The notes under the pieces are model-generated. The model made no database searches and was not told the DNA's origin. It saw only the letters and a list, made by a program, of their open reading frames with translations. A stretch of DNA of 64,000 nt from Eledone cirrhosa (Eukaryota): contig OZ024751.1 in the NCBI GenBank assembly GCA_964016885.1, positions 8,618,001 through 8,682,000 on the forward strand, written 5' to 3'. Position 1 is the stretch's first letter, and every line of letters begins with the position of its first letter. The translations under genes were made by a program, and so were the position numbers. Positions 21,320-62,996 of the stretch are shown one piece after another.

Positions 21320-22018
21320 GTGGTAGAACACTGGATGGTCATATCTGTAGTGGTAGAGCACTCAGTCCATGGGACGAGTTTGGTAGAAGTGGTTACACAA
21401 CAGTTAGTTCACCATACCGAGAACAATTGTTTCATCTTAGCGGATCCTCAGCTCGTAATGGACATGGTTATACGGAACAGGGAGGACAACCGTACGAACG
21501 CGCATCCGCAGAAACGGTCACTTCCCTCAGGCAATACTAAATTTCGTGCGAGAGGTGTAAGGGAGATAACTGAGAAAGACCGAAAGTTTCTAGTTGATAA
21601 GAAATTTAGGATGTTGTTGTAATTAAATCCGGAGCTTTGTAGTTATGTAAGAGGTTTTTCTAGACGTGTGGACAACCTGTGAAGAATTCATATCTTCAGT
21701 TTAGGCAATCGTTATTGCGCAATCTCTTTAGAATATTTATTCGTTCATCAATACATAGTCCACACGACGGAATGCCCTTGCGTATGGCTTGGACTTAGTG
21801 ATGGCTTTCCATTGAATGGAGTAGTCTATACTTGAGTCCTGATGGACCATACGTGACTGGCGAGTTTCGTGGTTGAACGTTTGTCCGCGTACCTAAAGGA
21901 CAACTGGTGGTTCAGGAAGCGTTCCTTAGATCGGCCCTCCGCCATTCGCACATAGGATTTGACCTGCTGTAGTTGATTTGATCGGTTGGAAGTGACCACA
22001 GCTTCATAAACTACACAC
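21320..22018 (-). mobile_element. PLE 3' fragment (family P): GIY-YIG remnant plus 3' region, inside TA
   Basis: VVYEAVVT...SYVRMAEG..KERFLNHQLSF...TKLASHVWSI at 21826-22020; same endonuclease type as 60933-61435. Confidence 0.85.
21418..21455 (-). ncRNA. Minimal hammerhead ribozyme motif (family P)
   Basis: cgag-CTGAGGA-tccgctaagat-GAAA-caattg-TT-ctcg; helix II is weak. Confidence 0.7.
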
Positions 22019-22047
22019 ACAGATATATATAAATATATATATATATA

Positions 22048-59838: not shown

Positions 59839-60636
59839 CATGTATATATATATATGCATATATATATATATATATATATATATATATATATATATATATA
59901 TATATATATATATATATATATATATATATATTCATATATATATATATTCATATATATATGTATATATATATATATATTCATATATATATGTATATATATA
60001 TATTCATATATATGTGTATATATATATATTCATATATATATGTATATATATATATATTCATATATATATATGTATATATATATATTCATATATATATGTA
60101 TATATATATATTCATATATATATTTATATATATATATATTCATATATATATTCATATATATATATATATATTCATATATATATGTATATATATATTTATA
60201 TTCATATATATGTGTATATATATATATTCATATATTTATGTATATATATATTCATATATATATGTATATATATATATATATTCATATATATATGTATATA
60301 TATATATATTCATATATATATGTATATATATATATTTTCATATATATATGTATATATATATATATTCATATATAAATGTATATATATGTATGTATATATA
60401 TATTCATATATAAATGTATATATATATATATATATATATATATATATATTCATATATAAATGTATATATATGTATATATATATATATATATATTCATATA
60501 TAAATGTGTATATATATATATATATACATATATATATTCATATATATATATAAATATATATATATATACATATATATATATATATATTCATATATATAAA
60601 TATATAAATATGTATATATATATATAAATATATATA

Positions 60637-62996
60637 GTATTAGTTATACTATTTATGGTTATGTAAATACAAAACCTTAAGCAGTTGTAAGTATTTTACA
60701 CACACTCTAAATAGTGGTAGGCAGTATTGTATTACTACCGTATTACCAGTAAGTTAAGTAGCTCAATGTAGATGATTTACAGAGCAGTTATATGAAATAT
60801 AAGAATCAAAGAACTGTTCAAAACATTATTGTGCTTACAGCTGTTTCCTCCAAACCGAGGTTTGGATTCTTCGGAGCAATTTATTAATGCATGGACAGTT
60901 ATATGACCTCCTTTTCAGCCGAGAGACATACCAATACCAAAATCCTATATCTACCACACAGACTTCCGCATTGCATTATAACCAGCGGACTAACGCACAG
61001 GATAATTGTAACTGTAGAGCTAATAGAACTTGCCCTTTACATAAAAAATGCCTAACCAAGGATGTCATATACTCATGCACCGTCACGACTAATAACTCTT
61101 CAGAAACCTGTGTAGGCTCCACTTCTAACTGCTTCAAAATCAGATATAATTCGCACATCCACTCGTTCAAAAAGCACAGCCTAGCCAACTCCACCTCACT
61201 TTCTAGCTACATACACTATCTAAAATCTAAAAATAAACCATACACACTCAAATGGGAAGTGATAGGAAGCGCGACCTCGTACAAACCACCTAATACATTC
61301 TGTAACCTCTGTATACTAGAGACACACAATATTATCTTCTCCAACCGTAACCTACTTAACAAAAAATCTGAGGTGTTTGCAACTTGCCAGCACCGCCTCA
61401 GACATTCCTTCCAAAACTTTAAGCCCAATATATAGCAATGTCGGACTGGAACCTAACACCACATCTAGCATCATACACCAGAGACATACCTTATACTACA
61501 TACCCAACACTAACTGATCCGTTATAACACAAACAATGACATCCCTCTGGAACCCTTCGCAGGGAGAATACCCATTTATACCTCTACGGCAGGTGTGACA
61601 ATATCCACGCACTTGAAAGGCACTACATCGCTCTAAGGGTAATTTGAGCATGAATTGTTCGGTTGGATAGTGTGGTGCAGAGGAAACACCTTCCTTAGAC
61701 AGATGTAACATGATTTAATCGAGTAGCGCTGTTGACCAGTAGGACCGGACTGCTGAGCGCAGTGAGTGAATGCATTCCAACTGCCGTGCGGGTTGTACGT
61801 ATATGGATGCTCTGACGGTCAGAGAGGGGTCGCGAGGACTGCGGATGGACCTTTGGCCGGCCTGGGGATAATTATCTTTCGACATCAAATGTAGCAAGCG
61901 ATGACCCAGATCTAACCAGAGATCATTGGGTCCTGAAGCAAGCCTGCAATCACCGCGCCTGGTCATATGAGCAGACTACAACCACAGAGATCATTAATTT
62001 AGAATCCTCGCTCATCATCTATAATTTCCATTTGTGGCACCTTAAGATGGGTTAATCAACCATAATAATATGATCACCTTCAGCATAACTTAATTAAACT
62101 ACTCTATAGTTAATACACTTTATGCTTTAAAAATCTCTCTTGGAAGATGCGCATCACCATGGAATTTAGGGTCTATATTGGGACACATTTTTATGGCTAG
62201 ATATAGAAACCCCAGAGTTACCTCCCCGCACGCATTAACTCCCCTTAGCCACACACACACTTCCGGGCGGTATTCAATGGCGTTTCTCGAAACGTAACAA
62301 CCTCCTGTATCGAACTAAAGAACACCAGACAACGATCTCTAACTGGATTGTCGTGGATTATGTGAAAGGCATATAATCGAAATATACACTCCCTTGACCA
62401 TGAAAATGCCGAAGTACATGAATTACTTGACATCCCTGCGCTGTGCATCTCCAATACTTATAACACTTTTAATGCTTGCACTATCTTTAATGCTTATAAT
62501 ATTTCTCCACACACAGACTATATCAATCATATAAAGAATTTGCCACCAGATCTACCAACCTAACACTCTTATTTACCTACCTAAGTGCCTCTACCACATA
62601 TCTCTCTGCCACACTATATAAACAAGACGCACATGCGTGCCACACATATAACATTTGCACTATATAACCGCTTATCTTCATGTTGTATTTTAACCTATAT
62701 TTATTTTTGATTTTTGATTGTACCTATTAATATAAATGTAATCTCGAAGTGTGTACTGCCACTCTAAATTCTGTAATGAATGTTGACCCACAATGTTTGT
62801 ATATATATCAATGTTTGAATATGTATTGGTATGTCTCTCGGCTGAAAAGGAGGTCATATAACTGTCCATGCATTAATAAATTGCTCCGAAGAATCCAAAC
62901 CTTGGTTTGGAGGAAACAGCTGTAAGCACAATAATGTTTTGAACAGTTCTTTGATTCTTATATTTCATATATTTCATATATTTCATATATTTCATA
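60637..62996 (+). mobile_element. PLE family C copy 2 with inverted long terminus (60637-60933)
   Basis: Inverted arm, GIY-YIG remnant, 1.5-kb 3' region, HHR, (TA)n flanks. Confidence 0.93.
60934..61435 (+). CDS. PLE GIY-YIG endonuclease domain, 5'-truncated (Nematis-like Cys pattern)
   Basis: CNCR...CPL..KCL..DVIYSCTV...VGST..FKIRYNSH...CNLCILE...LLNKKSE...CQH. Confidence 0.85.

Follow-up and report, generated by a model that had tools for sequence, protein, structure and literature searches.

Type-I hammerhead motifs in the TA repeats of this part of the Eledone cirrhosa genome are real, and we interpret them, with a probability of about 0.8, as predicted self-cleaving folds in the 3′ terminal repeats of (TA)n-resident Penelope-like elements (PLEs), accompanied by three short ORF-less tandem repeats of the same fold that likely borrow the Penelope enzyme. 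The window is a 64,000-nt stretch of contig OZ024751.1, and the motifs described here lie in its positions 21320–62996.

Hammerhead motifs and their (TA)n niche

A strict type-I hammerhead descriptor returned 14 motifs in this interval compared to 0 in each of 60 block-dinucleotide shuffles, ruling out chance frequency, and 0 in the reversed sequence. With a loose descriptor, 27 cores were obtained (4 being alternative cores for a GAAA already counted and 2 resembling chance), against a shuffle mean of 1.04 and a maximum of 3 in 25 shuffles. Across 580 kb of the genome, 21 motifs were detected versus 0 in 8 shuffles, and hammerhead density is estimated at ~36 per Mb. Our curated table of the interval holds 29 motif positions from 14 families, 15 of them decayed or deviant copies; because inverted and tandem arms count double, self-BLAST places only ~18 insertion events behind these 29. 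The figures of over 25 motifs and more than 10 families given in an earlier note on this DNA stand when decayed and deviant copies are counted and shrink to 14 motifs under the strict descriptor. The motifs have the type-I core CUGANGA ... GAAA ... UH with helices I–III in type-I order, accepting the variants CCGA and U3-A8. The proposed CCGA cores are genuine, being fixed in family C (30/30 loci), and the palindromes named for K, C, D, E, J, P, N, G and L were all present in their claimed core context. Families A, B, F, M and O and the permuted motif of island H were absent from that earlier list.

Covariation among genomic copies revealed compensatory changes between sister families: 7/13 pairs in the G lineage (2 of them in helix III), 6/14 in D/E and 3/15 in the C lineage, in alignments whose rows were mostly descriptor matches and whose counts are biased by fold-backs held in the L and N queries. 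None of 500 shuffles attained the observed cells. Per family, the best 40 first-look candidates were scored (5 for K), from totals that are candidates and not copy numbers (D 973, C 299, J 2126, K 5, G 2399, E 3451, L 1692, P 5310, N 1082, F 2494, M 879, H 969). The reading of the motifs as chance matches in AT-rich fold-back sequence can point to Rfam, where just 2 window motifs match any hammerhead model, both below gathering score (best HH9, 31.3 bits versus 52) and with no model fitted to these variants among the matches; it is already refuted by the shuffles and opposed by the covariation, and we give it practically no weight. The remaining Rfam matches in the window were mostly microRNA hits on TA repeats, and false.

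Almost every unique-sequence island within the TA tracts had been said to carry the motif; 19 of 34 do. The reported orientation toward the TA junction was borne out in 58 evenly spaced 10-kb genome blocks, where 19/24 motifs had (TA)6 within 300 nt downstream and 9/24 upstream, with 6.6 expected from locus-matched positions. The link to PLEs and the common (TA)n niche were likewise upheld. The surrounding sequences, described as unrelated, do show relationship between D and E (66% over 219 nt) and between A and F (70.7% over 1053 nt). All families end at fixed distances 3′ of the ribozyme, usually at one of two sites, forming two end classes per family. Ends were unequal in inverted pairs of G (5/9), L (18/21) and N (21/26); inverted pairs of D break this rule, 3/7 having two short ends. 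Island I (51139–51936, a 535-nt tandem) contained no hammerhead with any type-I descriptor.

Families at the ends of protein-coding elements

In 11 of the 14 families the motif belongs to the 3′ end of a protein-coding PLE; each joins a PLE reading frame upstream and is labelled Hydra-, Neptune- or Nematis-like on motifs rather than on an RT tree:

21418–21455, minus strand: family J hammerhead at a Hydra-like PLE 3′ end; CAATTG; 2-bp helix II, broken here, with U-U at its base
22045–24614, minus strand: family A, Neptune-like PLE; frameshifted RT and GIY-YIG ORF 22740–24514; hammerhead 22259–22296
24615–29430: family B, decayed PLE with inverted arm and Nematis-like linker; hammerheads 24741–24775 (minus), 27012–27040 (plus) and 29286–29320 (plus)
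30497–30609, minus strand: family P hammerhead at a Hydra-like PLE end; CCGA core, 82-nt helix II, CAATTG
39373–40704: family K inverted pair; hammerheads 39513–39629 (minus) and 40561–40677 (plus); 88-nt helix II, CACGTG
41781–42376, plus strand: family F variant, Neptune-like PLE 3′ end; hammerhead 42184–42228 with non-palindromic loop
42518–44600: family C inverted insertion; hammerheads 42738–42784 (minus) and 44353–44399 (plus); CCGA core, A-G at helix II base, CAGCTG
44914–45159: family L fold-back stump, young Hydra-like PLE; hammerheads 44932–44991 (minus) and 45004–45063 (plus); CCA-C-TGG
46500–46856, plus strand: family M; hammerhead 46763–46828 with (AT)n-like palindrome
48115–49690: family O, Hydra-like PLE end; hammerheads ~48210–48300 (minus) and 49587–49680 (plus); 6-bp monomer-stable helix III
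49792–49977, minus strand: family N fold-back stump, Neptune-like PLE; hammerhead 49867–49902, CCGG
52457–54275: family F inverted insertion; hammerheads 52597–52639 (minus) and 54032–54070 (plus); RT thumb and GIY-YIG ORF 52548–53828 (plus)
60649–62981: family C inverted insertion; hammerheads 60832–60878 (minus) and 62882–62928 (plus); endonuclease part of the ORF ~60940–61435 (plus)

Family C shows all the Hydra-clade diagnostic motifs given in section 11 of Craig 2021 (PMC8557442, in the part available to us): RW-R, DKT, CxCx5C, and CxxC and CxH close to the end, with no CCHH, in a protein whose RT precedes a C-terminal GIY-YIG domain. Two of its repeats, 4201 nt apart, enclose an intact 832-codon frame, and the insertion at 42518–44600 is the long 3′ repeat of this young element. 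Other families show fewer of these motifs: J has the linker and the end motifs, L has RWK and DKT, and K, P, M and O have just the end motifs. The frame of L is open for at least 542 codons in 11/28 loci, J has a same-strand PLE ORF upstream in 22/29 copies (nearest gaps ~170 nt), K is the end of a low-copy Hydra-like PLE with its ORF in locus L280, and the last PLE codons of O lie at ~48380–48460. Family M is likely the end of a Hydra-like PLE, as one copy joined to an endonuclease C-terminus suggests. The Hydra-like families show (TA)n insertion, tandem and inverted structure and an optional tail. Pfam gave no match on four Hydra-like ORFs, the best database homologs are 39% identical, and RVT_1 or GIY-YIG matches were weak in A, B and F.

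Neptune-clade features (PMC8557442, available part) were found in A and N, and the linker is decayed in the window copy of F. The family A hammerhead has a 2-bp proximal helix I and a G-U palindrome; those of B are minimal, the copy at 27012–27040 having its 3′ side deleted; and the N core is mutated in the window copy, most copies having a U3-A8 core. L, N, O and M appeared ORF-less at first, a reading dropped because longer flanks revealed reading frames.

ORF-less retrozymes and a permuted fold

The earlier note had proposed ORF-less ribozyme parasites, a description that fits 3 of the 14 families (D, E and G); all other families, among them C, J, K, L, N and P, which seem ORF-less within the window, are 5′-truncated ends of protein-coding elements. 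The ORF-less units, including the permuted family H, are:

35868–36480: family G variant with fold-back arm; hammerhead 36020–36066 (minus), half motif near 36362 (minus)
37886–39077, plus strand: family H, ~530-nt tandem; permuted (S-G-C order) hammerhead-like folds 38398–38498 and 38928–39028
41111–41719, plus strand: family E, 422–434 nt unit; hammerhead 41382–41424, CTAG
45269–46500, minus strand: family D, 467-nt tandem of 2.6 units, CTAG; hammerheads 45486–45516 (helix I broken), 45946–45988 and 46413–46455
47183–48100: family E inverted pair; hammerheads 47377–47419 (minus, helix II broken) and 47785–47827 (plus)
50337–50703, minus strand: family G, 318–321 nt unit with fold-back arm; hammerhead 50444–50488, U3-A8 core, CAAGGCCTTG

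As in retrozymes, D, E and G have units of 467, 422–434 and 319 nt with one type-I hammerhead per unit. Their longest ATG frames span 39–67 codons, their GC content is 0.34–0.36, and their TA-free tandem periods are 467 (9) and 466 (2) nt in D, 318–321 (8) in G and 428–464 (at least 5) in E. These retrozymes carry Penelope insertion footprints, and they likely borrow the Penelope enzymes. PLE protein matches upstream of single D, G and H copies proved to be nested or chimeric junctions. At locus L239, a 423-nt internal deletion of L, matching the autonomous PLE sequence at 99%, is inserted as a tandem with normal ends; this locus shows a retrozyme-like unit arising by internal deletion of a PLE. 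We rejected this unit as a family, its junction occurring at 1 locus only among the best 40 of 1692 candidates.

Alternatively, D, E, G and H could be satellites spread by DNA-level duplication, or stumps of long elements yet to be found, and not RNA-mobilised retrozymes. The nine near-identical D copies within ~4 kb on contig C9 (L293) would fit such an origin, as would the result that none of 9 reference elements shares sequence with D, E, G or H as an autonomous partner. Against it, copies 97–99% identical are scattered over many chromosomes, with fixed ends on (TA)n, fold-backs and a TA-free unit repeat period, and we consider it improbable.

In family H, cleavage is predicted after position 38443, the first copy being without the 5′ strand. 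Two-sided changes affect 3/6 pairs of helix I and 0 of helix III, which is 100% paired; the strands adjoining CUGANGA and GAAA pair with separate upstream strands, with 1 two-sided change each. The block order (cleavage site, GAAA, CUGANGA) is that of the type-SGC ribozyme (HRIMA-1; Eckert et al. 2023, PMC10085705, available part), with which H also shares a pseudoknot arrangement of helices I and III and an additional bracing helix. In H, however, the helix II-side strands are not mutually paired, each pairing with an upstream strand, the two joined by a hairpin; moreover, the SGC examples in that part of the paper come from metagenome and metatranscriptome sequence, whereas H lies in an animal retroelement. 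As modelled, H would work like SGC but falls outside the SGC class on helix II.

We give somewhat better than even odds to a joint reading in which H cleaves as a hammerhead wired in a way not described before, with S-G-C order and a helix II divided across a four-way junction, and is carried by a young ORF-less animal retroelement mobilised by Naiad-type enzymes. In this reading D, E, G and the L deletion unit are retrozymes to which TA-targeting Penelope elements gave rise and which these elements copy, and the genome holds on the order of 100,000 hammerheads. Our search, to which subscription papers, Repbase, Dfam and preprint supplements were mostly closed, found no publication on a permuted hammerhead in an animal retroelement or on cephalopod retrozymes.

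Helix III, mobility and significance

The hammerheads had been called minimal, which fits B only, where helix III is absent or reduced to the conserved pair; the other families have 6–19 nt there, and most have a helix III of 1–4 bp with a palindromic loop. The 15.2–16.2 region is palindromic in all families but F and bulged in O. An extra base between 9 and 10.1 and G10.1-C11.1 both occur in A, B and F, G10.1-C11.1 alone in D, G, N and O, and neither in C, E, J, K, L, M and P.

The earlier idea that family-specific palindromes confine dimer cleavage to self, taken here as an outcome of selection, is not supported by this survey. Palindromes are not family tags, because they are common to unrelated families: CTAG to D and E, CCGG to N and another family, and CAATTG to J, P, a sister of C and two more families, while the F loop is non-palindromic. 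Families that share an identical palindrome have helix I strands that do not match (0 and 2 bp); specificity, if there is any, would therefore lie in helices I and III acting jointly. In keeping with selection for self-recognition, no non-sister pair joins at least 4 bp of helix I to at least 4 bp of helix III (cross matrix, row A dropped), and sister families in the G and C lineages differ in palindrome. Yet drift alone predicts such incompatibility, CTAG is unchanged in D and E despite diverged helices I and II, and a tandem transcript provides a same-family partner in cis, making this selection a poor candidate. We found no publication on heterodimer specificity of hammerhead palindromes in a search to which subscription papers were mostly closed.

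In the mechanism we propose, a GIY-YIG endonuclease would nick (TA)n and reverse transcription would begin at fixed internal RNA sites ~40–230 nt downstream of the cleavage site, so that the ribozyme would face the TA tract even in heavily 5′-truncated copies. Later insertions would go into the TA flanks of older copies, building dense nests. In a tandem transcript, two successive same-family ribozymes would pair via palindromic helix III and swap helix I strands, and dimer cleavage would release unit-length RNA, possibly circularised; as each ribozyme would find its partner next to it on one RNA, the palindrome would need no family specificity. For one PLE, in vitro work demonstrated internal initiation at two adjacent sites and AT-rich targets (PMC11167929). 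Observations that sit against this overall reading are the lack of an autonomous partner for D, E, G and H among 9 reference elements, the D end-rule exceptions and the single-copy link of M.

The main rival holds that the ribozymes are protein-assisted monomers or dispensable for transposition, with the palindrome merely a short stem and self-complementary loop carried along. In PMC11167929, cleavage required the PLE protein and was dispensable for insertion in vitro, since mutants still inserted; only 1/9 retrozyme dimers cleaved in the available part of Li, Clavereau and Pollet 2026 (10.64898/2026.07.22.740005). Closure of helix III as a monomer is predicted for G (4 bp), L (3 bp) and O (6 bp), and the C ribozymes stand 4.2 kb apart in tandem. 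Dimer folding is not universal: the loop of the abundant F is not a palindrome, and O is expected to fold as a monomer. Conversely, the innermost helix III pair, impossible in a monomer hairpin, goes from A-U to G-C in the C lineage; homoduplex helix III is predicted to be more stable than the monomer hairpin for palindromes of 6–12 nt, a 6-nt palindrome hairpin being predicted at +6.0 kcal/mol; and distinct palindromes recur over 25 clusters, although these include duplicates from overlapping loci and the descriptor demanded a palindrome. We hold the monomer or dispensable reading to be possible at roughly one chance in four and retain the dimer mechanism.

An ensemble of TA-targeting PLEs with hammerheads is already anticipated in print: the available part of Craig 2021 (PMC8557442) lists Hydra elements that target TA and have ribozymes of this kind, among them one from Octopus. 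Shared features are (TA)n targets, a type-I hammerhead near the 3′ end, self-complementary helix III, a helix II base that is often U-U, and many families per genome (14 for Hydra magnipapillata). Helix III of Hydra-1_Obim, a C-terminal-endonuclease PLE of Octopus bimaculoides (acca-a-tggt), differs from that of family L in the central base alone, and their N-termini are alike. The elements here are longer (C unit 4.2 kb, 1.45-kb 3′ UTR), and the CCGA core, A-G or A-A closings, perfect even-length palindromes or 82–88 nt helix II inserts of several of the ribozymes were not found in the available part of its File S2. Similarly, the metazoan PLE hammerheads of Cervera and de la Pena 2014 (PMC4209133, available part) occur within the terminal repeats of PLEs, chiefly as single motifs associated with truncated PLEs, with inverted pairs 100–700 bp apart, many families per genome, a palindromic 15.2–16.2 region, a U3-A8 variant and predicted dimer action; only B is truly minimal here, G10.1-C11.1 is missing from the seven families named above, and our estimated density far exceeds the 4,000–9,000 per genome that a different descriptor gave in that study.

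Non-LTR retrozymes (Cervera and de la Pena 2020, PMC7229834, and the 2026 preprint, available parts) are likewise ORF-less low-GC tandem units of a few hundred nt, each with one type-I hammerhead; units span 150–450 nt, and the preprint has families reaching 972 nt. Those of axolotl share a 1–2 bp helix III with palindromic tetraloop and a U-U helix II base, and a PLE origin has been proposed for metazoan retrozymes. D, E and G, known here as DNA units, differ in that they lie in (TA)n and show fixed ends, tails and fold-back arms of PLE type, a combination we did not find described in these parts.

A PLE specialist would be unsurprised by the type-I ensemble, which is already known; less ordinary are the Penelope footprints on retrozymes, the deletion-born L unit and the permuted H fold with covariation. 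The mobility of animal retrozymes and the role of PLE hammerheads are still open questions. Young intact C and L elements stand beside young ORF-less D and G; as their ends are mapped and their (TA)n target is defined, the enzyme can be combined in vitro with its RNA and target. For comparing dimer with monomer cleavage, nature provides a ready series of variants: a CCGA core with A-G closing, a helix II of 2 bp or 88 nt, and palindromes of 4–19 nt. If H cleaves, it would add a ribozyme topology and may explain the apparent lack of hammerheads in Naiad elements.

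Hammerhead motifs in the (TA)n islands

Hammerheads were counted with a strict descriptor of the type-I fold. It requires a CYGANGA or UUGANRA core, helices I and II each of 4 bp or more (a closing mismatch being allowed in helix II) and a self-complementary helix III no shorter than 6 nt. Between positions 21320 and 62996 it returned 14 motifs, and neither the reversed sequence nor any of 60 block-dinucleotide shuffles gave one. A loose descriptor returned 27 cores, 21 of which were judged distinct real motifs, compared to a shuffle mean of 1.04 (25 shuffles), while an Rfam scan matched two D copies only, both under threshold. 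The earlier note's claim that hammerhead motifs share the TA islands is thus largely upheld but overstated: 19/34 islands contain a type-I motif, one has a permuted motif, three have just the tail of a family that bears the motif, and 11 have none of these. Its figure of over 25 motifs stands as a count of positions, of which our curated table holds 29 in 14 families, but 15 are decayed or deviant and inverted and tandem arms raise the count, our reading of the self-BLAST giving ~18 insertions. (TA)n makes up 13.8% of 21320–62996 compared to 4.3% of an even genome sample.

Across 58 evenly spaced 10-kb blocks of the 3.0-Gb genome, the strict descriptor found 21 motifs compared to 0 in 8 shuffles, with at least one motif in 13/58 blocks and 6/21 motifs supplied by a single array. 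The sampled density is ~36 motifs per Mb, that of the window being ~9 times as high, and the per-genome estimate is 46,000–191,000 motifs (block bootstrap). With a relaxed descriptor, (TA)6 lay within 300 nt downstream in 19/24 motifs and upstream in 9/24 (6.6 expected), confirming that the orientation toward the TA junction first noticed in the window is general.

The fold was supported by covariation in sequence-only alignments of sister families. The G lineage, aligned in 7 rows, has two-sided changes in 7/13 pairs, including two helix III pairs; D/E has them in 6/14 pairs (10 rows). In the C lineage they affect 3/15 pairs over 7 rows, two of which were included by eye. For all three lineages, the observed cell number was reached in 0/500 shuffles and slid controls were far lower. 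Most rows were descriptor hits and pairing is therefore partly built in; the pair-type changes themselves were not imposed by the descriptor. The C-lineage change in helix III falls on the innermost palindrome pair, whose formation requires a dimer. The CCGA core that had been noticed is indeed present and, with an A-G pair at the helix II base, is fixed in C in 30/30 loci, intact elements included, and so is not decay.

Several variants depart from the minimal form. Helix II inserts of 79–97 nt occur in several families, in the window (30497–30609, 39513–39629) and at other loci of the genome (L102:8135–8260, L188:2272–2390, L110:6994–7099); standard descriptors would miss such hammerheads. 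The helix III palindrome of M is (AT)n-like at 46763–46828, and the M copy at 9558–9674 has a fragment of another repeat within helix II. At 32304 (−), away from any TA tract, lies an old hammerhead-like core whose loop is CTAG and whose cleavage site is broken.

It had been proposed that family-specific palindromes restrict dimer cleavage to self. Predicted energies favour the homoduplex for palindromes of 6–12 nt, and helix III of O, G and L is also closable as a monomer. Among 25 motif clusters CTAG is common to D and E, which differ in helices I and II, CAATTG to J, P, one C sister and two other families, and CCGG to N and one other family, while the loop of F is non-palindromic in most of 30 loci; the palindromes do not serve as family tags. 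By our own reading of the topology, helix I is also intermolecular in the double hammerhead as drawn in PMC4209133, and in a cross matrix families with identical palindromes pair over 0 bp (J/P) or 2 bp (D/E) of helix I. Palindrome-based self-recognition is not supported. Family incompatibility resides in helices I and III jointly, and selection is not required.

Penelope-like element ends and ORF-less units

The islands had been read as Penelope-like elements (PLEs) together with ORF-less parasites, which is half right: D, E and G are ORF-less, but 11/14 families are, judged from sequence, 5'-truncated PLE ends, because PLE frames or linkers join C, J, P, K, L, O, M, A, F, N and B. No ORF is apparent in the C copy at 42518–44600; at another locus, L154, an intact 832-codon reverse transcriptase and GIY-YIG endonuclease (RT + GIY-YIG) frame of C lies between repeats 4201 nt apart, preceded by a truncated inverted arm. 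The C protein has Hydra-clade motifs as given in Craig et al. 2021 (PMC8557442). A PLE frame lies upstream of J in 22/29 copies, P, K and O are linked to one, M is linked on one copy, and in L the frame runs open to the locus end in 11/28 loci. Zinc-finger linkers of Neptune type mark A, F and N, and the B linker is Nematis-like. Named homologs of the window PLE protein come from Argonauta, and one family is akin to a published Octopus element. A second A copy at 6816–9322 (97.6% identity to 22045–24465) contains a 540-codon open RT + GIY-YIG stretch.

No frame of more than 67 codons was found in the ORF-less families, whose periods are TA-free and whose fixed ends on (TA)n fall into two classes by distance from the anchor:

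D: unit 467 nt; ends at 204 and 258–265 nt
E: unit 422–434 nt; ends at 163 and 183–193 nt
G: unit 318–321 nt; ends at 172 and 206–208 nt

D, E and G fit the sequence definition of non-LTR retrozymes. They differ from plain satellites by their fixed (TA)n ends and fold-backs, and D and G also by dispersal, with copies scattered in the genome at 97–99% identity. A short end on one arm with a tail on the other was found in 5/9 inverted pairs of G, and in 18/21 of L and 21/26 of N, whose queries were biased toward fold-backs; D departs from this pattern, with two short ends in 3/7. At L239, a 423-nt unit of the L ribozyme, downstream leader and first 41 codons was inserted as a tandem with a fold-back and normal ends (1684–2600). 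Its junction was seen at this locus only among the best 40 scored candidates, and this single case reads as a retrozyme-like unit derived by internal deletion of L. No autonomous PLE partner of D, E, G or H was identified among 9 reference elements compared.

Nine near-identical D copies in both orientations, with TA tracts between them, occupy ~4 kb at L293:4990–9020. A 311-nt ORF-less tandem family (L144:6100–7950, L282:5360–6180) matches G at the insertion end (77% over 155 nt) and has a ribozyme unlike G's, with palindrome CGCG; this combination points to an exchange of modules or to rapid turnover of the ribozyme.

Elements other than PLEs also occupy the (TA)n niche. Short 3' ends of other retroelements adjoin TA or GATA repeats at 35156–35260 and 37274–37557, and in L292 a 1045-codon frame ends in sequence that matches the latter. 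Family I (51139–51936) is a TA-flanked 535-nt tandem with relatives elsewhere in the genome; the descriptors used found no hammerhead in it, and it may contain another ribozyme or a decayed one. No hammerhead was found in the TA-flanked island at 30699–31050, which has one diverged relative (L237, 71%). A decayed DDE_1 transposase (pogo/Tigger-type) lies at 19831–21068. One SINE-like repeat is very abundant, with 83 and 147 BLAST matches in a 580-kb genome sample; it occurs at 33140–33400, 34657–35011, 12224–12420 and 5064–5158, and a weak tRNA-like Rfam match at 5830–5902 (−) (28.2 bits, cut-off 29) is possibly a SINE head.

The permuted fold of family H

The earlier note omitted one further motif:

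37886–39077: H, tandem of ~530 nt, ORF-less, permuted hammerhead-like fold

Periods of H are 506–538 at 30 loci, and the best 40 of 969 first-look candidates are at 99% identity. Its blocks run from the predicted cleavage site (38443) through GAAA (38460) to CUGAUGA (38487). Twelve aligned copies fit a six-helix pseudoknotted structure, in which 95% of cells pair and 14/33 pairs change on both sides; 0/500 shuffles reached this. Helix I, the brace and the hairpin are strongly supported, the two arms standing in for helix II have one two-sided pair each, and helix III showed no two-sided change among the 12 copies. Diverged relatives of this fold lie at 16474–16617 (+) and, as a partial copy, at 6621–6703 (−).

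Type-SGC ribozymes, as described in PMC10085705, have the same block order but a direct helix II, which H lacks. By eye, the H block order and pairings recur in the supplement of Craig et al., in a sequence that directly precedes the Naiad_Ovul entry and is probably the 3' end of Naiad_Obim, and cephalopod Naiads are labelled 'HHR_half_core' in File S1 (Craig et al. 2021, PMC8557442).

Known elements and a possible route of mobilisation

Since PLE and retrozyme papers already describe its features, the type-I ensemble is a further case of a known type. Palindromic dimer-type hammerheads in truncated PLEs, many families per genome, were reported by Cervera and de la Pena 2014 (PMC4209133), and Craig et al. 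2021 (PMC8557442) described the (TA)n preference of Hydra elements and tabulated their ribozymes, a cnidarian accounting for 14 families and Octopus for one. In axolotl retrozymes the tetraloops are palindromic and helix II has U-U at its base (PMC7229834; 10.64898/2026.07.22.740005), and a PLE origin of retrozymes was proposed by Li et al. 2026 (10.64898/2026.07.22.740005). A 2026 Octopus vulgaris repeat annotation gives 31 recently active Penelope-like families, and the word 'ribozyme' is absent from its main text. In a literature search of limited reach, we found no published account of PLE footprints on ORF-less units, the L deletion unit or the H fold.

Anatomy, fixed ends, orientation, ORF links and covariation were observed directly. 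A PLE protein cleaves both strands of AT-rich DNA and begins to reverse-transcribe RNA at two adjacent internal positions, which produces the optional tail; the ribozyme of that PLE is protein-dependent and dispensable for insertion in vitro (PMC11167929). The same start sites would lie here 40–230 nt downstream of the cleavage site, so that every stump would keep a (TA)n-facing ribozyme. In tandem transcripts, successive ribozymes would pair and release unit-length RNA, and D, E, G and H may be mobilised by PLE enzymes in trans. The main interest of these elements lies in the H fold and in the testability of retrozyme mobilisation.
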